The position numbers were made by a program, and so were the translations under genes. From positions 1-13,028 of the forward strand of contig JAEORO010000073.1 in NCBI GenBank assembly GCA_016840855.1: DNA of 13,028 nucleotides, given 5' to 3'. The notes below the pieces were generated by a model, which was not told the DNA's origin, searched no databases, and saw nothing but the letters and a program-made list of their open reading frames with translations. This DNA comes from Candidatus Thorarchaeota archaeon (GTDB lineage Archaea; Asgardarchaeota; Thorarchaeia; Thorarchaeales; Thorarchaeaceae). Below, piece after piece: positions 1 to 13,028 of the stretch (within the stretch, counting starts at the first letter, position 1; every line of letters starts with the position of its first letter).

Positions 1-2
1 AT

Positions 3-2900
3 TATCACATTGGAAGTATCATTTGTTATTCCACTTCCAGATGAATCTGAATATAGGAATGTATAGACCATGTAATCAAGACATGGAGAAGGAAGTGCTG
101 CCTCAATCAAAGTCAGTTCTGTATCTGCTCCAACAATCTCAACAGTTACAGATAGCTGCTTGTTCTCATACTTTTGTATGCTTCCAGTCCAATCAAAGAA
201 GACAGTAAGTTGCTGAATCCCAATTCCTCCAAACTGAGAAGCGGCAATTGATATGATGTAGTGTCCATCACCATTGACAGTATCGTTTTCCCAATAAATT
301 ACCAATTGGTGAGTTGCATTCCAGACTGTACATTGGACAAAAGATGATGCTATCCCTTGCAGATGATCACGATCGCCGAAATACACCGAGATGTTGATTT
401 CTCCATCTGAAGTTGTATCTTGAACCGGTGACGTGAAACGAAGCTCTGTCTTGATTGTACGAATTATAACTGTGATATTGAATGTGGCTGCTTCATATTC
501 TGTTCCAGCTGAAAAAACAAAGACTAAGTAATACGATTTCAGGGCATCACTTTCAAAGGTGTGAATTGTGATACTGTATCGACTACCTGTCCAAATGATA
601 TCATAATGTTCCACAGTCCAATTACACGAGTGGCTTGGAGTAAGTATTGGAACATTGTGGTCCATATCCATATAGTCAACATAGAATGTTCGAGAGTCGC
701 CAACAGGTATTTCTAGAGAACCCACGGTGGCTGTTGCGTATGTTCTGATTTGCCTAATCTGAATGTTAATTGTTATCGTCTTGTTATCGTAGTTTTCCGC
801 TGAAGCTGTAAAGTTCACAGGGTAAATTCCAATACTCCATGTGGAAGTGTCGATTGTTACTCTGTATCTGCCACTGCTAATCAACTGCTGACCAAGCTTT
901 CCTGATCCTACAACATAGATTGTAGCTGTATCAATTCCTATTCCTCTATCTATATCCACAAACTCCAAGGTAACAATGGCATTTGTGCTATATGAGATAG
1001 TCAAGACAGGATAATCAGGAGAGCTCAGGTCACTTCGAGCTTGACTAAATTGAAAACTAATGATTGGGCTTTGTGTATTGGAGTAATTCTCAGATATCCC
1101 AAAAATGACGAAAATTCGAATACCATAAGTACCTCCTAAGAAGTACGATTTATCGAGGGTCAGGACATAAGTTCCTGTACCTTGAGCTGAAAATGTCTTG
1201 ATATTGTAGATTGTTCCATTCTTATCTCTTATACTGAAATGACTTTGAAGAAGACCATCGACTGGCATATTGTCATAGGTTGAACTGGATTCATTTACGG
1301 TCACATATACGGTTATCTCGAAGTCATCTCCAATTGGAAAGGCACCTATCTCATCCCACGAAAGGGTAGTAGTTAGTTTTTGAACTCTAAGAATTATTGC
1401 TATAGTACCATCATAATAGAATCTCGGAGATGTAGTGGCAAGCACTGTGATATCAATTGTATAAGTTCCTATCAACCAATCTTGAGATTCAATTTGGAAT
1501 TGAAGTGACCCATAAACAGCAGATCCAGTGGTCCATTCGGCGAAGACGCTCGAAAGGTTTCCTGAAATTGCTGTGTTTCCTAGGTCTTTATCCAAATAGG
1601 AGAGTGTGACTGTGACGTTTGATCCCATAGGTATTGAGCCATCATAGGTAGCCACAACAATTGTCCTATGTGGTCTGACAGACACCGCAACAGTGATCTC
1701 ACCTGATTGATAATTTGTGCGTATGATAGTGAAATTAAACATGTATATGCCGACGCTATATGACCCGACATCAATTTGGATGGAGTATCTGCCATCAAGC
1801 AGGTCTACATATTCAAATGTTCCATCTCCACTCAACGTTCCTCCAGTTAAACCGATGCTACCGTGATCAAGATCCAGCCAATTAAGCGTTAATGTGACAT
1901 TTTGACCCCAAGGTGTGTTTACGGGATTTGTTTCAATCTGAATAAGATCTGTTTTAATCTCTCGTAACCTAAAGACAATATCAATTGAACTCTCAATCAC
2001 AAAACTTTGTGATGGGAATACGTTTATCCTGAAACAATATGTTCCTATGCTCAAGCCTGTTGAATCTAAACTTACAAGATATGTTCCATTGTTGTAATCC
2101 GTCCACCCAAGACCTGTACCGTTTGAGGTCAGAGTTGCCCCATCATAGTATGCTCCAGTTATAGCATCTTGAAGATTTACTTTGACATTGAAATCTTCGC
2201 CATACGGTGTTGATGGTGGTGTCCTGTAAGTCAAAATTGTTCTGTGTGAAAGTTCCAGGTCAAAGAAAGTTGTTGTATCAAGGAGATAGGGGTGACTTGA
2301 AACGATGTTCAACCTCCAGTTTCCTGGTTGACCTAAATCAGAGGTGTTGAGTGTTTTTCCATAGACCCCATTACCATAGTCTTCAAATTGAACTTGTGTT
2401 TCAGTACCTAAAACAGTCCAGTTCATCGTGACGCTCGAACCTGATACACTTTCAGCAGTTTCAGTATTTGTCAGTTGAACCTCAACCTCGAGAAGTTCTC
2501 CTGCAGTCCTAACTGAAATGCCATCTCCAACTGCATCAGCTGGTGAAAGAAGATCTAATGATGAAGCATGTTTGACGGTGAATAATCTATTGTATCTTCC
2601 AACACGCTCCGGACTAGAGTCTGCTGTGTTGTTAAAGTCGACATATACCTCCCAAAGTCCATTGGGCCATGCACTGGTCACACTGATTCCAGCCCATTCG
2701 AATTCACCACTCCCATTCTGACTCAAATCATCAGTACTGTAAAAGAGCTGACCACTTGGGTCTACCAAATGCAGCCTCATCGCTGAACCAGGCATCACAG
2801 TGGCAGTCCCTTTGAACTTTGCTTGGTCTCCTATTTGAAGTGCCACAGTATTTCCATAAGCTCCTGCATTCGCTCCACATTCAAGTTGAAGCACCTCATT
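3..2900 (-). repeat. Gene B stalk: about 9 complete plus 1 partial divergent ~95-115 aa Ig-like repeats (protein-level repeat)
   Basis: Units begin NEVLQL, HASSL, HRTIL, IKTDL, HRTIV, LTTTL, ARSDL, IRTYA, IKTEL and ADTEL. Most contain a P[YWMIV]G-type turn, a 'v.l.y.D.d' strand, a 'G.G.Y.i.id' strand and a 'G.Y.i.i' strand. I noticed no exact DNA-level repeats. Confidence 0.8.
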
Positions 2901-5900
2901 GCTTGAGGAGAATTCAAATTCCCAGATTCCAGAAACATCAAGTATCGATGAAGTCACCATTACCTGAGTGCTTGTTTTAGTGACCTCTGAGAGTCTGTTT
3001 TTACCAACTGGATCAGTGACACTTGTTAATGTCCACGCTACGGGATTGCTTAGATTGAAACTTACGTGGCTGATGCCTGTAGGTGGACTCACTAAGACGT
3101 TCGCTGTCCAAGTCGCATCAGTCCCATTGTTTACACTAAACGATGTCCCTTGTTGGAAATTCTCATCAAGAGTCGAGCTAGAATGGGCAACATTGAGATT
3201 CAATCTTGGAAGAATCTCTACAACGGACTCGACATTCGTGGAAAAGACCAAATCAACAGTTTCTCCAAACTGTGTTGTCTGCTCAAGACCTTGAGTCAGG
3301 AACCCTGACGGATCATATTGGTTTGCGTATTCTGTCTGTATCCAGCCAGCTGATTTGTAGCCATCTATTACTCTGAACTCGTCAATGCCTCCACGAAACG
3401 GAGTGCCACCAGTCTCAGAGCAAATTACAAACATATTACGGTCGATTCTCAAGGAACCTCCAGTTCCTAAGGTGTTATCAGTGAATGAGTCTACAAGCGA
3501 GCCATCCGCAAAGCAATATCCCCTGTATATACCATCTCCACTGCTTTCATACTTAAATACTACATAGTTCCAAGCCTGTCTTTTGACCAGCACACCTTGA
3601 TAAGCGTCGTACCCGTTGAAATGAACATCAACTTGGAAGTTTGCATAACCAGGTACTCCTACATCAAATGTACGAGCTAGATTCATCGATACACCCTTGT
3701 CGAATACTCTCCACTCGTTCGACCAGAATTCAGCATCTGTGGCAAAGTCAAAGTAAATCCAAAACGAGAACTGCCAATCAGACCAACCATCAAAGAAACC
3801 CATTCCATCAACAAAGGATATGTAGTTGCCTGCTACATTCTGAATGTATCTAGCACCATCAATCATCCCGTTCTGCATATAGCTCGTTAAAGTTGGTTCT
3901 CCACCATGGCCATTGTAGCTTGAGTCCTTCAAGTATGCAGCACTACCCGACTGTTCAGCGAGATGCCAGACACTTTCATATCCTTGCCAAACATTTGCTG
4001 TAGTCTCTATGCGTTGTGGTTCAGGTGCTCCATATTGCATGCTGATTACCGTATCCTCTGATGCAGACAAATAGGGGATCTGAACCCACGCAATCAGGTG
4101 CGCGTGAGTACCATTGTAATCAGGGTCATATACTTCGATTTGGTAGTCTAGAGTTTTTGAACTTGCTATGAATCTAATGTCATCACCAGTTGATTGAGCA
4201 TGACTCTTGAGATCACTGTCGAAAATGTCAACCAGAACAGGGAAATTTTCAAGGTCAGCGCTGACCTTTGTATGGTCTATGGTGAGATCTTTACTATACT
4301 GTTGTACTGATATTGTGTCTTCTTCCTGAGGTATCATGAAGTCAACATAGAGTCTAGCGAGGTTTCCTCCACCATATGACCAGGTTCCCTTTATTGTATT
4401 ATAGTCGCGATAATTATCTGAGTACATATAACCAAGCATAATTCCAAGATAATTCCCACTAGACCACCCAGAACGTGAAACCACTGCTTGAACAAGTGAT
4501 GAGATGTCTGGGGAGGCAAATCGATAATCTGCGTCCCAGTAATTTGGTGTCCAGTCTATGCTATTCTTAATCCAAGTATATTGAACCTCCAAAGGATTTG
4601 CTCCGCTAGCAAATGGTGCCATATTATCAGCTTCAGCCACCCAGACTCTGAATTTGTTGTCATCTCCATCTAAGTTGTACTCACCTAATGCCTCAATCTC
4701 AATTCTGGAAGAAGTAATTACCGCGCCTCTTGGAATGGTCAATGGAAACTGGAATCCAGTTTGATACTTAATCACATCATTCCATGTTGTTCCACTTGAA
4801 CTCCAAACTCCCACTTCAGGAGTTCCCGAAACACTGATTCCAGTGTCAGAACGACTGACGCAGTCTCTGTTCGCACCATCGGTTACAAATGGTGCAATGC
4901 TATCTGACGTAACTCCGGTGATAGCAGTCTGATTAGCGTATAGACCAATCTGCTCCGGAAACGGTCTTGCTTTGAATATTGCCTCTATCTCGTCTATATA
5001 CACATAATTGTTGATATTGGACGAAGGTTGACCTGAGAAATCTGTACTTAGACCAATCGCAAATGAAACAGAACCAGGTACCGGGATACTCGAGAATACG
5101 GAAGCTGGAACATCGACAGTAGCTTGAAGCCATGTGTCAGTAGTATATCCTGAACTAAGCACATTGAACTTAGCTTCGTAGCTACCTACTCGTACAAACA
5201 AGTAGAATATGCCATTCATTGTTTGACCGCTAGGTACTCTGTGATAAAATGACACTGTGCAGGAGTACACTTCCCTCCATGGTAACTGGATCTGCTGGCC
5301 TAAGTATATCTCCATACTCGGACTGAGGGTCTTGGTTGTATCAAAGAGCACGCTAGGTCTCCATCCCATGGATCCCTCTCTACCATTTCCTGCAGCAGTA
5401 TACCAGTATAGACCTCCATGAGTTGGATGGCTTGTTGAATCTCCACTCTTCAAAACTGACCAGCTATCTGGAATATTGAAGACCTCTGAGTTCCATGGCG
5501 AACCAGATATTATATGCCGTTCTCCATGATAGTCATCTAAGAGGCTGTTCTTCAATGTTCTGAACTCTGTAGAAAGGTATTCCAAAGACCCGCTGAGGTC
5601 GTAACCTGTCCAACCTGATGGTGCTTGAATCGAAGCTGTGCTTGGGTTTGAGGAATCAAGCATAACAATGCCTTGTGAATCATCATAAAAAACTCCATCA
5701 AAAGACACTGGTTGGGATGCACCTGTTGCGCTATATGCTTGTTGTCCTTCTGCAAGTCCAAACAGATTTGGTAAACCATCCCAAGTGAAACCTTCGACAG
5801 AAGAACCAGACTCATTTGGAATGACACCAACTGGAGTGCAGAAAATGAACAGAATAATGCAAGGTATAATGAATTGATAGGACAAACGTTTCCCTTTTCT

Positions 5901-5975
5901 TATCACAGTTTCATAATTGAGCATATGATTTGACTGGATTCCAACTTGATTGTTGGAGGTTTCATTACGACTCAT
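3..5975 (-). CDS. Gene B: giant surface protein with DUF2341 + LamG/ConA-like head and tandem Ig-like repeats, paralog of gene A (3'-partial, at least 1991 aa; absent from the ORF track)
   Basis: Manual translation from the ATG at 5975-5973 (MSRNETSNNQVGIQSNHMLNYETVIRKGKRLSYQFIIPCIILFIFCTPVGVIP...) gives one stop-free frame to the left edge (...YTFLYSDSSGSGITNDTSNVI). The frame agrees at both ends (1991 codons). It has an SD and an ATGA overlap at the start, recognisable DUF2341/LamG motifs and clear homology to gene A. Alternative starts at 5924 (ATG) or 5906 (GTG) are possible but lack an obvious SD. Confidence 0.95.
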   Translation of the reverse strand, partial: MSRNETSNNQVGIQSNHMLNYETVIRKGKRLSYQFIIPCIILFIFCTPVGVIPNESGSSVEGFTWDGLPNLFGLAEGQQAYSATGASQPVSFDGVFYDDSQGIVMLDSSNPSTASIQAPSGWTGYDLSGSLEYLSTEFRTLKNSLLDDYHGERHIISGSPWNSEVFNIPDSWSVLKSGDSTSHPTHGGLYWYTAAGNGREGSMGWRPSVLFDTTKTLSPSMEIYLGQQIQLPWREVYSCTVSFYHRVPSGQTMNGIFYLFVRVGSYEAKFNVLSSGYTTDTWLQATVDVPASVFSSIPVPGSVSFAIGLSTDFSGQPSSNINNYVYIDEIEAIFKARPFPEQIGLYANQTAITGVTSDSIAPFVTDGANRDCVSRSDTGISVSGTPEVGVWSSSGTTWNDVIKYQTGFQFPLTIPRGAVITSSRIEIEALGEYNLDGDDNKFRVWVAEADNMAPFASGANPLEVQYTWIKNSIDWTPNYWDADYRFASPDISSLVQAVVSRSGWSSGNYLGIMLGYMYSDNYRDYNTIKGTWSYGGGNLARLYVDFMIPQEEDTISVQQYSKDLTIDHTKVSADLENFPVLVDIFDSDLKSHAQSTGDDIRFIASSKTLDYQIEVYDPDYNGTHAHLIAWVQIPYLSASEDTVISMQYGAPEPQRIETTANVWQGYESVWHLAEQSGSAAYLKDSSYNGHGGEPTLTSYMQNGMIDGARYIQNVAGNYISFVDGMGFFDGWSDWQFSFWIYFDFATDAEFWSNEWRVFDKGVSMNLARTFDVGVPGYANFQVDVHFNGYDAYQGVLVKRQAWNYVVFKYESSGDGIYRGYCFADGSLVDSFTDNTLGTGGSLRIDRNMFVICSETGGTPFRGGIDEFRVIDGYKSAGWIQTEYANQYDPSGFLTQGLEQTTQFGETVDLVFSTNVESVVEILPRLNLNVAHSSSTLDENFQQGTSFSVNNGTDATWTANVLVSPPTGISHVSFNLSNPVAWTLTSVTDPVGKNRLSEVTKTSTQVMVTSSILDVSGIWEFEFSSSNEVLQLECGANAGAYGNTVALQIGDQAKFKGTATVMPGSAMRLHLVDPSGQLFYSTDDLSQNGSGEFEWAGISVTSAWPNGLWEVYVDFNNTADSSPERVGRYNRLFTVKHASSLDLLSPADAVGDGISVRTAGELLEVEVQLTNTETAESVSGSSVTMNWTVLGTETQVQFEDYGNGVYGKTLNTSDLGQPGNWRLNIVSSHPYLLDTTTFFDLELSHRTILTYRTPPSTPYGEDFNVKVNLQDAITGAYYDGATLTSNGTGLGWTDYNNGTYLVSLDSTGLSIGTYCFRINVFPSQSFVIESSIDIVFRLREIKTDLIQIETNPVNTPWGQNVTLTLNWLDLDHGSIGLTGGTLSGDGTFEYVDLLDGRYSIQIDVGSYSVGIYMFNFTIIRTNYQSGEITVAVSVRPHRTIVVATYDGSIPMGSNVTVTLSYLDKDLGNTAISGNLSSVFAEWTTGSAVYGSLQFQIESQDWLIGTYTIDITVLATTSPRFYYDGTIAIILRVQKLTTTLSWDEIGAFPIGDDFEITVYVTVNESSSTYDNMPVDGLLQSHFSIRDKNGTIYNIKTFSAQGTGTYVLTLDKSYFLGGTYGIRIFVIFGISENYSNTQSPIISFQFSQARSDLSSPDYPVLTISYSTNAIVTLEFVDIDRGIGIDTATIYVVGSGKLGQQLISSGRYRVTIDTSTWSIGIYPVNFTASAENYDNKTITINIQIRQIRTYATATVGSLEIPVGDSRTFYVDYMDMDHNVPILTPSHSCNWTVEHYDIIWTGSRYSITIHTFESDALKSYYLVFVFSAGTEYEAATFNITVIIRTIKTELRFTSPVQDTTSDGEINISVYFGDRDHLQGIASSFVQCTVWNATHQLVIYWENDTVNGDGHYIISIAASQFGGIGIQQLTVFFDWTGSIQKYENKQLSVTVEIVGADTELTLIEAALPSPCLDYMVYTFLYSDSSGSGITNDTSNVI
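3300..3990 (-). other. Gene B head module 4: LamG / concanavalin A-like lectin/glucanase domain
   Basis: VWQGYESVWHLAE...LKDSSYNGHGG...GMIDGARYI...FSFWIY...AWNYVVFKY...FADGSLV...FRGGIDEFRV...SAGWIQTEYANQYDPSGF is the standard Laminin_G_3-type signature that follows DUF2341. Confidence 0.88.
4029..4301 (-). other. Gene B head module 3: DUF2341 domain
   Basis: YSKDLTIDHTKVSADLENFPVLVDIFDSDLKSHAQSTGDDIRF...LDYQIEVYD...HLIAWVQIPYLSASEDTVISMQYG carries the characteristic DUF2341 motifs (L.nFPvLv, G.DIRF, L.yeIE, aWV.vP.L, i.mYYG). Confidence 0.88.
4338..4880 (-). other. Gene B head module 2: DNRLRE/CBM96-like beta-sandwich domain
   Basis: The motifs GFQFPLTIPRGAVITSSRIEI...SPDISSLVQAVVSRSGWSSGNYLGIML...ARLYVDF resemble the 'F..IP.GA.I..A.L...DIT.LVQ..V...N.G..L...P.L.V.Y' signature of DNRLRE-type surface domains. 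Confidence 0.6.
4962..5552 (-). other. Gene B head module 1: probable galactose-binding-like/CBM-type jelly-roll domain
   Basis: The pattern KNSLLDD...IPDSWS...IYLGQQIQLP...TVSFYHRV...YLFVRVG...TDTWLQATVDVP...SFAIGL...YVYIDEIEAIF matches the general CBM4/9-like signature (N..F, P..W, l.Q.i, SF, W...v, terminal vyiDdv). Recognised by eye only. Confidence 0.55.
5820..5900 (-). other. Gene B N-terminal signal peptide or signal anchor (basic n-region plus hydrophobic h-region)
   Basis: Residues 26-52 read RKGKR-LSYQFIIPCIILFIFCTPVGVI. I saw no other long hydrophobic stretch in the visible 1991 aa. Confidence 0.75.
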
Positions 5976-8900
5976 TCATCGTCACCTCCTTTCCCGAGGA
6001 TGCTTTTCAGAAGCTCTTCTGCAAGCTCTCTTGGAAGTTCGCGCGTCTGGTCCATTATAGTTTCAAGTTCACTTCCTTTAATTCCTGCATCCGTTAGTCG
6101 TTTTCGTATCTCTTTCAGCTCATCATCGCTAAGCATATCGGTTGAAATAACTTCTTCAAATTCCACAGGCTCTGGAATCATTCTTTCTGGTTCTTTAACT
6201 TCCTCAGTTTCGATTTGTTCTTCAACTGGTTTTGGTGCTGTGATTTCTTCGATCTCTTCCCCAGCCAGTATAGCGCGTGCCTTGATTGCTGTTTCTTCCA
6301 AGATTAGTTCCATAGGCTTTCTTTCAATACGCCCTTGCTTGATTGCTTCTTGATTGATTACTTCCTTCACAAAATTCACTTGTTCACTCAATTTCATCTT
6401 TGAAACATCAAACTTGAAGTCTTCAAGTTCCTCAGGGGTTAGCTTTGTTAGAATTGATAATTGAACAAGTAACTCTTCTATTTCAGGAACAGCTGTAGTG
6501 ATAGCTTCACTTGGTATGCTAGAAGCTGTTTTTGTAATACCAATAGGTCCTGCAATATCATTGAATAAGTCTGCGACAATCTCTTGTCTACTAAGAACAT
6601 TCTCCGGAGGTTTAGGAATCTTCCCTTTACTGATAGTCTTTACCATTCCTCTTATTTCCCGCAGCCGCTTAGGCACGCTAAAGAGTCGAGACCATAACAG
6701 TGCTCCAGCTAACACTATTACACCAATTGGAAATCCGTAGATTATTACATTACCAATGAGTATATCAACATCTGAAGGTTCGACTGAAATATTGATGACT
6801 ATACTAGCAGAATCGTAATTTTCTTTTGATAGGATAATTGAGATAATAGTTGATCCCTGCGTCCATTGAGACCTCACCCTGATTTCATACCAGCCTGGTC
6901 TTGATGGATCTGATTGGTTGAACATCACTTTTACATGGCGGAGGTCTAGACTTGTCGCATTTATTGAACCTCCTGTTATTCCCACGGTGGCATGGCCTAT
7001 CCAATCATCATAATAGAATACCCAAATGCTGTAATATTGCCCGTAACTCAGAGTAAGAGAGGTCAGTCCGTCAACTTGGATATCAGTTGGTACATTGATG
7101 ATTGTAATTTGGAGCTTGATTGTGGCTCTGCTCCAGTTAGCGAGATAGAACCTTAGAACGACTTCATATGGTATTGAGCTTACCTGCCATCGTGTGGTGT
7201 CTATCATCAGGCTGTAGTTTCCAAATGCAAGTTCTTCTATAAGGAGATTATCTGCTTCCGGATCCCCAGGAACAAGAATCACGCCTGTCATCTCAGTTGC
7301 ACCAGAAATGCCCCTATTATACCAGGTGTCATTGTAGAACAAAACTAATGGAAGTATGTCACCATATGGCACTCTCAAATCTAGAACATCCTCATCAATC
7401 TGGTTCATTTCGGGTGCGAATACAGCGACACTTGTTGGTACTTCTTTCACAGTGAGTGTGAAGACACCAGTACCAGTCCTATAGTTATCCATGAGGAATC
7501 TGACTGAAACCGGGTAGATTCCTGGACTCACTAATGATGTGTTTATGAATATCTGATAGGTTCCGTTTGCATAATAATTGAATACACTCTCTTCACCATC
7601 CCAATCTACGACAACACTTGCACCGGCAATTCCTCTATCAAATAGAATATCCCAATACGTGAGATTGACCCAACCTGTCCAACCCCAAATTTTGGGGCCC
7701 AAATAGGTGGATTCGACTGATGTTTCAATTGGTTCAATAATGAGTGTAGTAAGATTGTTTGAATATGCAAACATCGCAATAATAGGGTAGGCAGTAATCC
7801 TGAGAGTGTACGTGGACGCATCATAGTTCCATGTTTCAAAATCGAAATAGAAGTATCCCGGTCCACCAATGGATGACCCATTTAGGAATTCACCTGTGAA
7901 AGGTGAACCTGAAAGTGACCATCGCACAATACAATTAGCTATACCGGTTGATAGTGGATATGACTCATTCAATGACGGTGCAAGAACATATACTCCAATT
8001 CGAATTGTGTCTGACCAATTGAAGGTTCGTGCGCTATACGTAGAAGTGAGGTCATCAAGGAGAAGGATTGTTTTTATTTGCAAGACCTTAATACTTGCGG
8101 AGGTTGCTACTGAAAGGTAATTGGTACCCTCAGCTCTTATAGTGACAACATAATCACTTACAGGGAGACTGCTTGTATCAATAAATCCTCCATAGTATCC
8201 ATTCTTGCCAGGAATTGGGGATAGTATCATTTCATGAAGGGTTACATAGAACCAAGAAACTTTGACTATAGCTCCTAGCAATGGTGTGTTACTGTAGGTG
8301 TTATTAACATAAACCGTAATATTCACGAAACTACCCTTGTAAACCTCCTGTTGAGCTTCACTAACCAGAATCAACGCAATCGGTAGTTTTAGGACATTCA
8401 CTATTACTTGTCTTGTAATAGTGACATAGTTCTTGAGGGTGGCTGTAATTGATACCACATAGGTTGTTGCTATTGCCAGATTTCCTGTATCAACAGTGAA
8501 GGAATAATTACCTGGATCTAATATTACTTCGGAAAGACTACCACTGAGAACTCCAAACTTATAGACAAGGCTAGCTCCCGATATGAGGATGTTATCTCGA
8601 GTATTATTGAAGATAGCCCAGAGTGCAATATCATCGCCCCAATAGACATCAGGAATGGTCTGAGGGAGTATGAGATTTGTAGGTATTGCTAGGATTTGAA
8701 CAGGCACAGAAATATCCGCGATGAAGTAATCACTCTTCTGAGCTCCAACTACAAGTGTGAAAAGGCCTGCATCTAAGCTCGTTGTTGTCAGATTTATCAT
8801 GTACTGGCCATTTCCAAGAGGTGTATAATCAGGCGTATAACCAATATCTGGCCATGTTATTATCAGAATTGCATCACTAATCGGCGTATTATTTGCATCA

Positions 8901-11900
8901 GTGTCAACAAGCTCTACTATGACATATGTGGCTTCTCCATAGAATGCATCTGGCGAAATAACTTCATCCAGTTCTCCTTGTCGAAGCCTGATTTGAAATG
9001 GAACCTGTATCTGTATCGTCTGGTAATCTGATAATGATAGAGTAATAATGAGGGCGTTTGTCCCTGTTACACCTGCATCAAAGCAATCTACAACCAATTC
9101 GTAAACTCCTTGTGAGATTGGAGTTATGCTCCATGATGCTGGTCCGGATTCGTTGGTCTTGTATACAACTGAGAATGAAGTTTCTGCACCACTTATTGGA
9201 ATGGAATGGTCTAAATCCTGAAGGTTCAAGACAACAGAAACATTATCATTTATTGGAACAGTTGATGGATTTGGTTCTTCATTCGTTAGCTGTGCCTGAA
9301 TTAATCTAACTGATCCCTGCAGAAAAATGGTTGTAGTATTTTTATAAAATGGTACCATGGTGGGGTTCCAAAGCAAGCGTAGGGAGAATGTGAAGGTGCC
9401 CGTACTGCCAAGACTTGTAGTATCGACAACAATTGAGTAATCACCAGCGTTCCGAAATATCCAGAAATTAACACCCTCAACAAGACCACTAGGACTAAGG
9501 CAATCAAATATGACAATTGCATCATTTATGCCAGCACCTGTTGAATCATCAACATATGTGAATTCGAGTGTCATATTATCGTGTATTGGAACAGTTGGAG
9601 TGGCACCACGTATTATGAGTCCAATTCTATTGACCACGGTCACCCAAGCTGATGCACGACCGTCAGAGTAGTATGGTGCTACACTCTCCTGCCAATCAAT
9701 ATAGAAAGTGATATTCCAATTACTGACCAACCCAATATTCAATACTGACGAGTTGATAGAAACCACATAGCTCGAAGATAGATAGCTCATCGAGAAGTCG
9801 CTGTTTTGTAAAAGGGTGCCTTTACTGTATATGAGCAATTGACCTTTGCTCAGCTGGATTGCTTTTCCATTCATTACATCACTATACCTGATTGTAAACG
9901 TGACATTCTCAAGGAATTTAACTAGAGTTGTCGAAGCTAAAATTTCAGTAAGGGACTCTCTTTGCGTAACACTGAGTGTCAGACTAATCGTAGACGTTGA
10001 GTAATAAGGTGCGTTTGATGTCCATGATGCACTGAACACAAGGTTAACAGATGTCCCGGCTGGTCCTAGTGCTGTTGTGTTGAGTGAAATATGATAGGTG
10101 CCTTGGGTTGGACTTTGCAATATATAATCCACGCCCTCAAGAAGATCCACTCCACCTACTGTTAGAGCAATGGAGGCTCCTGCAATTCCATTCAATGATA
10201 GTGAATCTTGATAATATGCTGTGAAATTGATGTTCTCAAGATATTGAGTAGGTTCTGGTGATACTGTCAGTTCCAAGTTAGTTGCTCGCTCTCTCAGAGT
10301 GAATGAAGCAAATGCATCCGCAGATAGATAGAATGGTGATGAGTCTGGGTAGCTTATCTCAATCCAGAGAACATATTCTCGATTTATTTCAAGTAATTGA
10401 TTATACGTTTGGATTGTAAGAAGATAATCTTCTGTAGAACCTCGCCATACTGAACTGAAGAGCCATGAACTTCCATTTAGGATTCGAATTGTTGTTGGTG
10501 TCGAAGTATTACCAATATCTACCAGCGATAATGCATCGCTATAGTGAAACACCACCTCAAGGGAGTTATTGTAGGGCGTATCCGTAACAGGCTCCACAAG
10601 AAGGACAGTTAATCTATACCGTAGATTGAGTGATCGGGTTGCGGTGACAATGGCGTAATAGAAGTGACTTGTACTCATTCTTACTGAGATAGAATATGTG
10701 CCAGGTCTACTGAAGTATGTTGTCTTTAATTCTATATCATACTCGCCATTTCCGAGGAATATGACTGAATATTCAGACACGGGGATTTCCAATGACCCGT
10801 TAAATAGAGTGACTGTTCCATCATTGATTGTTTGTGGTATTCCTAATGTAACATCAGTATATGTGACATGAAGAGTAACATTATCACCGTAAGATGTTGG
10901 ACTAATTGTCGAATAATCAAATTCTGTGTCACGGAACCTAACATTAATGATGACTATTCTACCAGTCACATTAGCATAATACGGGGACCCACTCCAACTC
11001 ACACTAATTGTGAACTGCCGGCTTCCTAGTGGTGATCCTAAGATACTTGTGTTGAAGGAAACATGGAATTGTTTTGTTGTTGTGTTATACGTAATTGAAT
11101 AATCTGGAAGTCCAATAGTAATATCCATCTGAGAACCAAGGGGTATTCTCTCAGTAGTGCTTTCTGCAACATCATCAAATGAGAAAGAGAAGGTTGCATT
11201 TACACCATAAGGAGTGCTTTCAGGTGGAATCAGATTGACCAATGTATTTCTCGGGATTATACGAACTGACACACTGTCAGTCCTGTTGTCATAACCTGGA
11301 TCAACCCCTTTGGACCAATTCACATATACAATCATGGCATAAATTCCAGGTTTCTCGAACATCGTGCTATTGAACTCAATCGAATAATAGCCCGGATTTC
11401 CACTATCCTCGGTTATTGTAAATAACGAGGGACTAAATGTATAGCCAATAAATTCAACATAAATGAACACATTTCCTGCTGGCGCAGATATATTCGAGAT
11501 GCCATTTCCACTGTAAAGCTCACTGTAGAGATAGGTGTATGTTAAGTTGTTGAGGTATGGTGTAGGTCCAGCTGAATCAATCAAACTAAGCTCTGAAGCT
11601 TCCCCTATTATCTTTACAAAAGCCTTGACTGAACCATCGTAGTACTTCTGTACAGGTCCCGTCCAGTTGAAATAGATAGTAAGCTCGAAGATTCCAGAAG
11701 GTCCCAAATTCGTGGCTGGAAATCTGATTATATAGTACCCATTTCCCAGAATAGTGTCATTTTCATAAGTTGATAGAATCCATCCCAATTCACCATATAC
11801 TGATAGATTAACAGGTGCATCAATTATTCCTGCATCATTATCGAGGTCTCCACAATATACCGATATGTTGACCATGGCATTATAGCTTGTAGGTTCGATA

Positions 11901-13027
11901 GCGCTCGCAAGTCTGAATTCGGTCAAGTGAGTCCTAAGAATGATGCTTATGTTGAAGTATCCAAATTGATAGTTTGGACCCTTTGAGAAGTTAAAGATAA
12001 CCAAGTAAGAACCTAATCCATCTATGTCTTCACTGGGCAGCTCTATTCTGTACTGGTCGCCAGTCCAACTAATACTTAATGGATATATCCAATTGTGACT
12101 GATTGTTGCTCCGAGAATTGGTTCATCGTGAGTGATATCCCAGTAGTCTGCGTAAAATACTGCAGTATCCCCAACTGGCAAATCGATGATAGACACAGAA
12201 GATCTAGCATATGCATATGCAATCTGGACGAGAATCTCGCAGGTCAATGTCTTTGCTTGATAACCACTTGCATCAGCTGTCAGGTTGACTTCGTGAGCAC
12301 CAAGATCCCATCCTTGTACAACTATGAGAACCTCATATATTCCACTCCCGATGTGCTCCCAAACAATCAATGCACCTTCTGAAGTTATTGCCCCAATAGT
12401 AATATTCTGACTATTATCAATATCAACATATGATAGTGTGATTGTAACATTCGTGTCAAAACTAGTCGCTACTGTTGGATAATTCGGAGATGAAAGATAG
12501 GTTAGTATTGGACGATATGTGAATGAGATTTGAGGACTATTGGTGTCAATGTAATTGTCTGTTGGTTGGAAATCGATGAAAATAATAATCTTGTACTGTC
12601 CCTCAAGAAATCTCGAGTTGTCAATGGTAATTTGATAGAGTCCATTTCCAAGATTTGCGAAACTCTCGAATGTGTAGAGCCCACCTGTTTCGTTTCTCGC
12701 ACTGAAATAGGTCTGATCAAGACTTGCAATTGGTGTACCATCTATTGGACTGCTTGGCTCACTAACATTAACATAAATAAATAATACAAAGTCATCTCCA
12801 TTTGGAAATGGCTCAAGAGGGTCCCAGCTCAAGTATACATTCAGTTTTCGTATCTCAAGCTGAATTATGATATAGGAATCCATATAGAATCTTGGAGAAG
12901 CTAATGCGCTAATTGTCACGTTTACTGTATATGATCCAACAGCCCATCCACTAGTATCCAGCCAAAAGCTAAAGGTAGCAAAACTTGTGCTTCCTGTCCC
13001 CCACTCTAGACCTACCTGACTCAGATT
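5972..13027 (-). CDS. Gene A: giant membrane-anchored surface glycoprotein/adhesin with tandem Ig-like repeats, C-terminal TM helix and long cytoplasmic tail (5'-partial, at least 2351 aa)
   Basis: The track gives a 2315-aa ORF at 5972..12919. I translated upstream of its GTG and the frame stays open to the window edge (NLSQVGLEWGTGSTSFATFSFWLDTSGWAVGSYTVN-VTISALASPRFY), so the GTG is an internal Val. The ectodomain is S/T/I/V/Y-rich with a recurring 'GnGxYxIxIdTs.l..GxYxixi' motif. It is followed by a hydrophobic stretch, a basic segment and a charged helical tail ending KGGDDE*, with TGA at 5974-5972. Confidence 0.95.
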   Translation of the reverse strand, partial: NLSQVGLEWGTGSTSFATFSFWLDTSGWAVGSYTVNVTISALASPRFYMDSYIIIQLEIRKLNVYLSWDPLEPFPNGDDFVLFIYVNVSEPSSPIDGTPIASLDQTYFSARNETGGLYTFESFANLGNGLYQITIDNSRFLEGQYKIIIFIDFQPTDNYIDTNSPQISFTYRPILTYLSSPNYPTVATSFDTNVTITLSYVDIDNSQNITIGAITSEGALIVWEHIGSGIYEVLIVVQGWDLGAHEVNLTADASGYQAKTLTCEILVQIAYAYARSSVSIIDLPVGDTAVFYADYWDITHDEPILGATISHNWIYPLSISWTGDQYRIELPSEDIDGLGSYLVIFNFSKGPNYQFGYFNISIILRTHLTEFRLASAIEPTSYNAMVNISVYCGDLDNDAGIIDAPVNLSVYGELGWILSTYENDTILGNGYYIIRFPATNLGPSGIFELTIYFNWTGPVQKYYDGSVKAFVKIIGEASELSLIDSAGPTPYLNNLTYTYLYSELYSGNGISNISAPAGNVFIYVEFIGYTFSPSLFTITEDSGNPGYYSIEFNSTMFEKPGIYAMIVYVNWSKGVDPGYDNRTDSVSVRIIPRNTLVNLIPPESTPYGVNATFSFSFDDVAESTTERIPLGSQMDITIGLPDYSITYNTTTKQFHVSFNTSILGSPLGSRQFTISVSWSGSPYYANVTGRIVIINVRFRDTEFDYSTISPTSYGDNVTLHVTYTDVTLGIPQTINDGTVTLFNGSLEIPVSEYSVIFLGNGEYDIELKTTYFSRPGTYSISVRMSTSHFYYAIVTATRSLNLRYRLTVLLVEPVTDTPYNNSLEVVFHYSDALSLVDIGNTSTPTTIRILNGSSWLFSSVWRGSTEDYLLTIQTYNQLLEINREYVLWIEISYPDSSPFYLSADAFASFTLRERATNLELTVSPEPTQYLENINFTAYYQDSLSLNGIAGASIALTVGGVDLLEGVDYILQSPTQGTYHISLNTTALGPAGTSVNLVFSASWTSNAPYYSTSTISLTLSVTQRESLTEILASTTLVKFLENVTFTIRYSDVMNGKAIQLSKGQLLIYSKGTLLQNSDFSMSYLSSSYVVSINSSVLNIGLVSNWNITFYIDWQESVAPYYSDGRASAWVTVVNRIGLIIRGATPTVPIHDNMTLEFTYVDDSTGAGINDAIVIFDCLSPSGLVEGVNFWIFRNAGDYSIVVDTTSLGSTGTFTFSLRLLWNPTMVPFYKNTTTIFLQGSVRLIQAQLTNEEPNPSTVPINDNVSVVLNLQDLDHSIPISGAETSFSVVYKTNESGPASWSITPISQGVYELVVDCFDAGVTGTNALIITLSLSDYQTIQIQVPFQIRLRQGELDEVISPDAFYGEATYVIVELVDTDANNTPISDAILIITWPDIGYTPDYTPLGNGQYMINLTTTSLDAGLFTLVVGAQKSDYFIADISVPVQILAIPTNLILPQTIPDVYWGDDIALWAIFNNTRDNILISGASLVYKFGVLSGSLSEVILDPGNYSFTVDTGNLAIATTYVVSITATLKNYVTITRQVIVNVLKLPIALILVSEAQQEVYKGSFVNITVYVNNTYSNTPLLGAIVKVSWFYVTLHEMILSPIPGKNGYYGGFIDTSSLPVSDYVVTIRAEGTNYLSVATSASIKVLQIKTILLLDDLTSTYSARTFNWSDTIRIGVYVLAPSLNESYPLSTGIANCIVRWSLSGSPFTGEFLNGSSIGGPGYFYFDFETWNYDASTYTLRITAYPIIAMFAYSNNLTTLIIEPIETSVESTYLGPKIWGWTGWVNLTYWDILFDRGIAGASVVVDWDGEESVFNYYANGTYQIFINTSLVSPGIYPVSVRFLMDNYRTGTGVFTLTVKEVPTSVAVFAPEMNQIDEDVLDLRVPYGDILPLVLFYNDTWYNRGISGATEMTGVILVPGDPEADNLLIEELAFGNYSLMIDTTRWQVSSIPYEVVLRFYLANWSRATIKLQITIINVPTDIQVDGLTSLTLSYGQYYSIWVFYYDDWIGHATVGITGGSINATSLDLRHVKVMFNQSDPSRPGWYEIRVRSQWTQGSTIISIILSKENYDSASIVINISVEPSDVDILIGNVIIYGFPIGVIVLAGALLWSRLFSVPKRLREIRGMVKTISKGKIPKPPENVLSRQEIVADLFNDIAGPIGITKTASSIPSEAITTAVPEIEELLVQLSILTKLTPEELEDFKFDVSKMKLSEQVNFVKEVINQEAIKQGRIERKPMELILEETAIKARAILAGEEIEEITAPKPVEEQIETEEVKEPERMIPEPVEFEEVISTDMLSDDELKEIRKRLTDAGIKGSELETIMDQTRELPRELAEELLKSILGKGGDDE
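5975..6691 (-). other. Gene A cytoplasmic tail (239 aa): basic juxtamembrane helix, helical module, acidic Pro/Glu linker, terminal helical module
   Basis: Composition switches abruptly from beta-rich S/T/Y/V to E/K/L-rich helical sequence after the TM, and the tail has no N-X-S/T sequons. Confidence 0.8.
5982..5989 (-). promoter_or_regulatory. Shine-Dalgarno sequence (GGAGGTGA) for gene B, embedded in the last codons of gene A
   Basis: The plus strand reads tcacctcc at 5982-5989, so the minus strand reads GGAGGTGA-CGATGA-ATG. This is full complementarity to the canonical 16S anti-SD with a 6-nt spacer. Confidence 0.88.
6692..6763 (-). other. Gene A single C-terminal transmembrane helix
   Basis: ILIGNVIIYGFPIGVIVLAGALLW is 24 aa with no charged residue. 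It is followed by the basic segment SRLFSVPKRLREIRGMVKTISKGKIPKPP, which fits the positive-inside rule. Confidence 0.9.
6773..13027 (-). repeat. Gene A stalk: about 19 complete plus 1 partial divergent ~100-115 aa Ig-like repeats (protein-level repeat)
   Basis: Units begin KLNVYL, PILTYL, IAYAYA, THLTEF, GEASEL, PRNTLV, FRDTEF, YRLTVL, ERATNL, QRESLT, NRIGLI, LIQAQL, LRQGEL, AIPTNL, KLPIAL, QIKTIL, PIETSV, EVPTSV and NVPTDI. They share the motif order T.L / PYG.nv / Y.D / I.GA / GnG.Y / dT..l..G.Y / nY. Confidence 0.82.
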
Positions 13028-13028
13028 C

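Follow-up and report, generated by a model that had tools for sequence, protein, structure and literature searches.

The described systems closest to the locus studied here are the fibrillar and giant repeat adhesins of bacteria, the surface-layer (S-layer) protein PySLP of Pyrobaculum arsenaticum, the 'huge proteins' of archaea, the tandem giant paralogs of Heimdallarchaeum aloposons and the single-pass adhesion receptors of eukaryotes. The locus itself fills the window, by which we mean the whole 13,028-base stretch of DNA analyzed, a complete contig (C2) from the genome bin of a Candidatus Thorarchaeota archaeon, and consists of two genes, here called A and B. We find that the two genes form a translationally coupled pair, conserved among relatives, whose products are giant glycoproteins of type-I membrane topology in this Asgard archaeon. 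The proteins belong to a known kind, the giant immunoglobulin (Ig)-repeat surface proteins; what is new is their undescribed cytoplasmic tail and their obligate pairing. Their most likely role, which we regard as probable though well short of certain, resembles that of a fibrillar adhesin: glycan-directed adhesion or capture, with a long reach, on the cell surface.

The bacterial systems for comparison are the ice-binding adhesin of Marinomonas, 1.5 MDa in size (PMC5550230), FdeC and the Big-domain invasin and intimin. In contrast to these, A and B are archaeal and form a translationally coupled paralog pair, are anchored by a single C-terminal transmembrane (TM) helix with a tail of 238 to 412 residues rather than by an outer-membrane, type I secretion system or sortase anchor, and share no sequence family with them (Pfam detects DUF2341 and LamG only). 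PySLP (bioRxiv 10.64898/2026.08.21.746120) is, like A and B, an archaeal protein that combines a signal peptide, a pillar of many Ig-like domains and an anchoring TM helix at the C-terminus; its homologs span a lineage, and it carries glycans. Its available description gives 19 Ig-like domains, a reach of 37 nm and a lattice core with a crown, and no carbohydrate-binding module (CBM) or LamG head, whereas A and B have 23 to 24 units, heads of lectin type and a helical tail that is long and acidic, and come with many paralogs and in gene pairs. A survey of archaeal 'huge proteins' (PMC11573180) reports Laminin_G_3 as their commonest domain, lying near the N-terminus and present in some variants in two or more copies, and calls their function not understood; the available text of the survey holds no analysis of tails, pairing or Ig stalks, and only A-type proteins exceed its 5,000-residue threshold.

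Otus and Ephialtes of the Heimdallarchaeum aloposons (PMC8813620) resemble A and B in being tandem giant paralogs of 3,000 to 6,000 residues in Asgard archaea. They are reported to integrate at a tRNA gene lying downstream of the giants and to have four upstream genes, a MinD/ParA-like ATPase among them. The present locus, compared by locus description, differs in its stable chromosomal synteny, and neither a tRNA site nor a ParA/MinD gene or an integrase turned up around it. Two Thorarchaeota metagenome-assembled genomes (MAGs) are said in the same paper, in one sentence and one legend, to have 'tandem giant genes', which can be likened to the present family by text description only. This is the sole mention that we found; in the literature searched, neither the tail nor the pair nor the head folds were found described. 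An earlier sequence-only reading of this DNA knew of no characterized system with this arrangement, a view to be qualified on two counts: the tandem layout had already been mentioned in Thorarchaeota (PMC8813620), and an Ig stalk with a C-terminal TM helix is the build of a proven Pyrobaculum S-layer protein (bioRxiv 10.64898/2026.08.21.746120). Finally, integrin beta and the cadherins of eukaryotes offer a functional analogy only, sharing with A and B a type-I topology, a modular Ig-type ectodomain and a conserved cytoplasmic tail with the potential to dock adaptors. A and B have no detectable homology to integrin beta or cadherins in any part, no known adaptor-binding motif was identified in them, and their tail is lineage-specific.

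The source bin comprises 3.36 Mb in 259 contigs at 42% G+C, with 92% completeness and 6% contamination. A six-frame listing of open reading frames (ORFs) in the window gave two giant frames, both on the minus strand and sharing an ATGA, just as the sequence-only reading had described them:

5975 to 13027, minus strand: C-terminal 2,351 codons of gene A, open at the 5' end, with its stop TGA at 5972-5974.
3 to 5975, minus strand: N-terminal 1,991 codons of gene B, open at the 3' end.
5972 to 5975, minus strand: ATGA overlap of the A stop TGA (5972-5974) and the B start ATG (5973-5975).
5982 to 5989, minus strand: GGAGGTGA, a Shine-Dalgarno-like motif 6 nucleotides upstream of the B ATG.

Since the window is the entire contig C2, the truncation of both genes reflects the contig ends and has no biological cause; of gene A the window carries the distal 60%, of gene B the proximal half. 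The frames are supported by contigs from four public metagenome runs (four studies), which differ from the window by substitutions only, with zero indels; a 722-nucleotide metagenome contig covers the A/B junction (5940-6661) with no difference from the window. The two proteins are paralogous along their shared length. Residues 1-512 of A are 41% identical to residues 1473-1985 of B (expectation value (E) 1e-112), and A remains collinear with the continuation of B described below up to the C-terminus, at 32-46% identity per 200-residue window. The shared motif SPRFY, from which collinearity had been proposed, lies exactly where it had been placed, at residue 1516 of B and residue 8 of the 2,315-residue GTG ORF of A, and is residue 44 of the open A frame. 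Two plus-strand ORFs, at 2968..3294 (108 codons, antisense within B) and 5946..6353 (135 codons, across the A/B junction), are taken as shadow ORFs.

Gene A ends in GGA GGT GAC GAT GAA TGA, so that its product closes on ...GGDDE; the ATG of B takes its A from the end of GAA and its TG from TGA. The motif GGAGGTGA is itself encoded by the conserved C-terminal G-K-G-G codons of A. We compared the junction across 15 A-type loci, namely the window and 14 orthologous loci, and a start/stop overlap is kept in all 15: ATGA in nine, GTGA in five (one of these unverified, since its contig stops within the downstream frame) and, in one, TAG/GTG overlapping by a single base. GGAGG lies 6-8 nucleotides upstream of the B start in 14 of the 15, with GGAAGG in the remaining locus (L031). 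An A-type tail followed directly by a B-type head on the same strand was found in 15 other genomes, 11 of the own genus (g1) and four of genus g12; the tandem pair is conserved across relatives. A second giant frame was seen in 6/6 close loci fetched with downstream DNA, and one genome bears two A-B pairs consecutively. Such ATGA/GGAGG coupling would ensure joint production of a long (A) and a short (B) form, the two paralogs being made in fixed proportion from one message.

The remainder of B was located on another contig of the bin. The left end of the window is identical over 127 nucleotides to the start of contig C195, the sole matching contig end, and C195 extends the B frame by 2,051 codons, the first 41 of which duplicate the last 41 of the window. 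Compared with the ortholog G001_B, C195 is 70% identical to residues 1937-3981 and the window part of B 76% identical to residues 15-1976, and the same downstream genes, an N6_N4 methylase-like gene and a class III aminotransferase gene, are found on C195 and beside the ortholog. Based on the 127-nucleotide overlap, the ortholog alignment and the shared downstream genes, we place the total length of B at ~4,001 residues, in line with B-type frames of 3,975-4,011 codons in relatives. The TM helix and tail that had been predicted for B are both present on C195, and the full protein begins with a signal or anchor segment and a head of two CBM-like jelly rolls plus DUF2341 and LamG, continues with a stalk of 23-24 Ig-like units and, after one TM helix, ends in a tail of 412 residues.

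For the right end of the window, on the 5' side of A, no overlapping contig was found anywhere in the bin; contig C231, which is 50% identical to residues 1979-2815 of the ortholog G001_A, may or may not belong to A. The window part of A aligns at 74% identity with residues 3540-5889 of G001_A, which is complete at 5,889 residues, and A-type frames in relatives span 5,176-6,560 codons (among them 5,180, 5,894, 5,898, 6,208, 6,555, 6,555 and 6,560). The A orthologs start with a classical signal peptide and carry a head 35% identical to residues 40-914 of B, which agrees with the expectation of a comparable head in A. Beyond this head an A ortholog has six Laminin_G_3 stretches (E 1e-97) and five DUF2341 stretches, giving about six or seven DUF2341-LamG modules in A orthologs versus one in B. 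The earlier estimate of ~3,820 residues for both proteins is therefore not supported, A being much longer.

The head of B, which lies wholly in the window, was resolved into the following parts:

5814 to 5885, minus strand: N-terminal hydrophobic segment of B (B 31-54), a signal peptide or signal anchor by hydropathy scan.
4962 to 5573, minus strand: B head domain 1 (B ~135-338), a CBM-like beta jelly roll.
4311 to 4928, minus strand: B head domain 2 (B ~350-555), a CBM-like beta jelly roll.
3984 to 4187, minus strand: DUF2341 (B 597-664), Pfam PF10102, 27.9-28.8 bits against a cut-off of 23.4.
3339 to 3779, minus strand: Laminin_G_3, LamG/concanavalin-like (B 733-879), Pfam PF13385, 28.5 bits against a cut-off of 27.6.

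The 28.5 bits for Laminin_G_3 and 28.8 bits for DUF2341 come from a scan of the piece B 561-900. The orthologs and paralogs likewise begin with a basic n-region, after which comes a hydrophobic segment. Between this segment and DUF2341, residues 55-560 of B gave zero sequence matches in Pfam, NCBIfam (E up to 0.1) or a PDB profile search (best E 0.051), and a model built with 32 homologs (predicted local distance difference test (pLDDT) score 85.4, predicted template modeling (pTM) score 0.83) shows two beta-rich domains. The label DNRLRE/CBM96 that had been suggested for the head is not borne out, as the head pieces have no match to it in NCBIfam (E up to 0.1) or Pfam. All head modules have carbohydrate-binding-type folds, and sugar binding itself is predicted; the folds hint at acidic polysaccharides, of alginate or chondroitin-sulfate type for instance, as candidate ligands.

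The head is followed by a stalk of Ig-like units that leads directly into the membrane:

6770 to 13027, minus strand: ectodomain stalk of A (A 1-2086), 18 full and 1 partial Ig-like units of ~105 residues each.
3 to 2852, minus strand: start of the B stalk (B 1042-1991), 9 full Ig-like units and the beginning of a tenth, by repeat hidden Markov model (HMM).
6689 to 6769, minus strand: transmembrane helix of A (A 2087-2113), by hydropathy scan; helix 97-128 of the model.

Stalk units were counted with an HMM iterated from one unit (period ~105 residues), which found 9 full units in the window part of B, 14 on C195, 23 in G001_B and 22 in G001_A. Each protein has one gap of ~145 residues that the HMM does not detect, at an identical relative position; in A this gap domain spans residues 1637-1781. 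The fold of the stalk unit is Ig-like by model and fold searches. In the hydropathy scan A has a single TM segment, with 238 residues after it. N-X-S/T sequons number 55 in the A ectodomain against 23.4 expected; in the B ectodomain there are 37 against 16.4 expected in the C195 part and 25 against 19.2 in the window part. The enrichment amounts to ~2.3-fold in the A ectodomain and the C195 part of B and 1.3-fold in the window part of B, with zero sequons in the A and B tails. From ~4 nm per domain and 23-24 units we infer an extended stalk length of ~90 nm.

The tail of A lies entirely in the window and was divided as follows:

5975 to 6688, minus strand: cytoplasmic tail of A (A 2114-2351), from an alignment of 34 tails and an AF2 model.
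~6266-6589, minus strand: helical block of the A tail, from the AF2 model (pLDDT 70-88).
~6143-6256, minus strand: acidic disordered linker of the A tail, 38 residues, variable and E/P-rich (pLDDT <50).
~5996-6127, minus strand: C-terminal three-helix motif of the A tail, ~45 residues (pLDDT 81-87).

The alignment of 34 tails shows a basic juxtamembrane motif, FSVPKRLR..KGKIPKP, in which P, K and P are invariant, then a conserved SRQE..LFND motif and a helical block of ~110 residues with the consensus PEIxELLxQLSILT..EELDxF..SKMKxSEQ..FVKEVIxQEA. The end motif occurs once in A and four times in tandem in B, as in all 10 other aligned B-type tails (11/11). Both tails (238 residues in A, 412 in B) are net acidic, with a D+E fraction of 0.22-0.24 versus 0.14-0.17 for K+R. 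The description of the tail as folded is right for the helices and the small three-helix end, but not for the 38-residue acidic linker. Searches of the tail against Pfam (E up to 1), NCBIfam, a PDB profile library (best E 0.29) and the ESM Atlas returned nothing usable or above a curated cut-off; the only recurrent sub-threshold Pfam matches in the 11 B tails were to DUF6074 (7/11, best 22.8 bits against a cut-off of 27.2), the Bap31 C-terminal domain (6/11), RecX_HTH1 (6/11) and SAP (2/11). Apparent stand-alone tails of ~200 residues proved to be truncations at contig ends. The three-helix end motif was also seen at the C-terminus of unrelated proteins (among P0163, P0175, P0181 and P0183), namely a UPP-synthase fragment (two copies), a protein with a MoCF-type domain and an OPT transporter fragment, and a bacterial FliK-like protein has weak copies; chimeric contigs or a mobile mini-module may account for these occurrences.

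The tail family has a narrow distribution. As a query the tail retrieved 59 proteins from a set of 5.8 billion sequences, and every source name given for them is a Thorarchaeota, Promethearchaeota or Sifarchaeia MAG, in agreement with the Asgard origin surmised earlier. A tail-only profile run against 1.84 billion cluster representatives matched 133 proteins (E up to 1e-3), nearly all of the matches stopping at, or a few residues before, the protein C-terminus. Among 301 genomes sampled across the phylum, the tail was matched in 95: in 72/76 of the own family (1-8 copies each), in 1/1 of a sister family, weakly (E 1e-6 to 1e-11) in 15/19 and 4/4 of two other families, and in 1/68 and 1/3 of two further ones. 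It was not found in the sampled genomes of the remaining families (e.g. 0/28, 0/21 and 0/11). The weak matches are to the TM helix and proximal tail of other large proteins, some of them arrayed in tandem. The tail family is almost confined to one Asgard family. The head was matched in 59/76 genomes of the own family. In another family of the phylum, proteins of 1,400-2,200 residues lie in tandem arrays (G014:C24, 89,500-101,200; G063:C2, 40,900-52,900; L095, L096, L101 and L103), and their TM helix and proximal tail show remote similarity (22-31% identity) to the present tail.

Taken as a whole, the anatomy of lectin-type tip, Ig rod and membrane anchor argues for adhesion, and two of the features of a fibrillar adhesin, the tandem Ig-like stalk and a predicted C-terminal TM anchor, are present in both A and the B continuation. 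Each protein would be exported via its N-terminal signal segment and would present a tip made solely of carbohydrate-binding-type folds (two CBM-like jelly rolls, DUF2341 and LamG) on a stalk of 23-24 Ig-like domains leading directly into the single TM helix, while the conserved tail would fix the fibre to a cytoplasmic partner. A and B may cooperate in this role. Several points weigh against this reading. A CBM fold match is by itself no proof of sugar binding; S-layer domains (SbsC, Sap) are matched by the Ig-like unit no less well than adhesins; the head of A is known from orthologs only, as its N-terminus is missing from its own bin; and the tail may share a known fold, the fold searches with the model having concerned its Ig unit (residues 1-96). 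A further point is the existence of PySLP, a proven S-layer protein of 292 kDa with 19 Ig-like domains and a C-terminal TM helix (bioRxiv 10.64898/2026.08.21.746120), three of whose features, a signal peptide, many Ig-like domains and a C-terminal TM helix, recur in A and B. The two proteins could accordingly build a colossal S-layer or canopy, in which Ig pillars hold a CBM/LamG layer above the membrane and adhesion is secondary. We consider such a coat unlikely, if plausible enough to deserve weighing. The own genome has six tail-bearing genes of very different lengths, whereas S-layers usually consist of one or two dominant proteins. Lectin-type heads set A and B apart, and a stalk of 23-24 units would put these heads ~90 nm out, compared with 37 nm for the largest known S-layer. 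The tails, at 238-412 residues and acidic, differ from the short basic, lysine-ending tail described for PySLP homologs. Moreover, the sole cultured Asgard archaeon to be imaged, though of another class, is reported to lack an ordered S-layer (PMC9834061).

We also examined the genes flanking the pair. In 5/5 A-type loci with upstream DNA, from two genera, the gene directly upstream of A on its strand is a leucine-rich repeat (LRR) gene of ~210-220 codons whose product lacks a signal segment and looks cytoplasmic. One or two divergent genes near A encode proteins of 400-455 residues with an N-domain of no named family and a Ras/Roc GTPase domain. Pfam confirmed these LRR and GTPase neighbors in G001, G143 (LRR only), G254 and G090, those of G002 being assigned by eye. 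The positions are:

L021 17972-19998, L058 1327-3453, L059 1271-3387 and L113 693-2787: LRR/GTPase loci.
C19 13700-14992 (L064 4700-5992): own-genome GTPase ortholog, 79% identity, at the very end of C19.

A layout of C19, a gap holding the LRR gene and the 5' part of A, C2 and C195 fits these data. An LRR protein beside a Roc domain recalls the ROCO proteins. In G254 (C8, ~25,000-87,500; L056, L057 and L058) the order is A', B', GTPase and LRR genes, A, B, placing four giants in ~60 kb, and a DUF4332/HHH_5 gene precedes the upstream giant pair at the position expected for the LRR gene.

These neighbors bear on another account, in which A and B are contact-sensing receptors that pass a ligand or tension signal through the TM helix to the tail, whose end motifs (one in A, four in B) would recruit partners such as the LRR protein or the Ras/Roc-type GTPase. 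The LRR and GTPase genes are kept in two genera, downstream synteny differs between these, and the own genome retains the GTPase ortholog at the end of C19. The tail is also among the best-conserved parts between paralogs (37-43% identity over the last 350 residues of A, compared with 22-31% in the membrane-proximal stalk), although some distal stalk windows reach 35-46%. However, gene neighborhood is the sole link between the tails and these partners, the five loci, being those of close kin, do not count as independent cases, the LRR/GTPase pair was not found beside paralogs, and the second pair of G254 has the DUF4332/HHH_5 gene upstream instead. No kinase, phosphatase or other known signaling domain was found in the tail by Pfam and NCBIfam scans. 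Signaling as the principal function is, in our estimate, improbable. A bolder form of the idea, a long shot, would make the GTPase-LRR-A-B block an outside-in adhesion-signaling module: two matched ~90-nm fibres would sense contact with a partner cell or polymer, and their multivalent tails would use three-helix docking motifs (one and four), tethered by acidic leashes, to recruit the LRR adaptor and to switch the small GTPase. If true, this would be a prokaryotic analogue of adhesion-receptor-to-small-GTPase signaling in the lineage closest to eukaryotes.

The surroundings of the pair also speak to the idea that A and B are cargo of a mobile element, the Thorarchaeota counterpart of Otus and Ephialtes of the Heimdallarchaeum transposons. 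Sizes of 3,000-6,000 residues and the tandem layout fit this idea. Nevertheless, ARAGORN found 0 tRNA genes in ~90 kb around the pair in two genomes (L020-L024), with the proviso that intron-bearing archaeal tRNAs can escape this program, and no MinD/ParA ATPase, integrase or transposase was detected by Pfam among 10 flanking ORFs. The upstream genes encode the LRR protein and the proteins with Ras/Roc GTPase domains, and downstream of the pair Pfam recognized PolB, a methylase-like gene and an aminotransferase. Synteny between two genomes extends over both flanks, which contain housekeeping genes (PolB, aminotransferase, GTPases), and the pair is inherited across two genera at a constant place relative to the LRR and GTPase genes. 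An aloposon-like origin is very improbable indeed.

Other members of the family in the own genome are embedded among unrelated housekeeping genes. A second tandem pair lies on C176, and a complete paralog of 4,128 residues shows the full plan of head, stalk, TM helix and tail. On C248 (22163-40784; L004 and L006) two members stand head to head (divergent) with 217 bases between them, one being the complete 4,128-residue gene, with two DUF2341 stretches. A DUF2334 gene of ~230 codons (deacetylase/GH57-like) was seen directly upstream, on the same strand, of a paralog-group giant gene in 11/14 loci scanned (L079-L093), and in the own genome a DUF2334 gene adjoins the C53 paralog (L062 8492-9187).

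The cultured Asgard relative without an ordered S-layer is described as bearing complex protruding surface proteins, which are thought to mediate cell-cell contacts and are relevant to syntrophy and to models of eukaryogenesis (PMC9834061). With long-reach adhesion as its probable role, the present locus is a concrete molecular candidate for such contacts in Thorarchaeota. A and B represent a lineage-specific family of giant lectin-tipped fibres that, unlike bacterial adhesins and known S-layer proteins, have a conserved modular tail inside the cell. Should this tail dock no cytoskeletal or GTPase partners, the family would still show fibrillar surface proteins anchored in a manner that is new; if it does dock them, it would provide a prokaryotic precedent for a receptor-type linkage between the cell surface and the interior.

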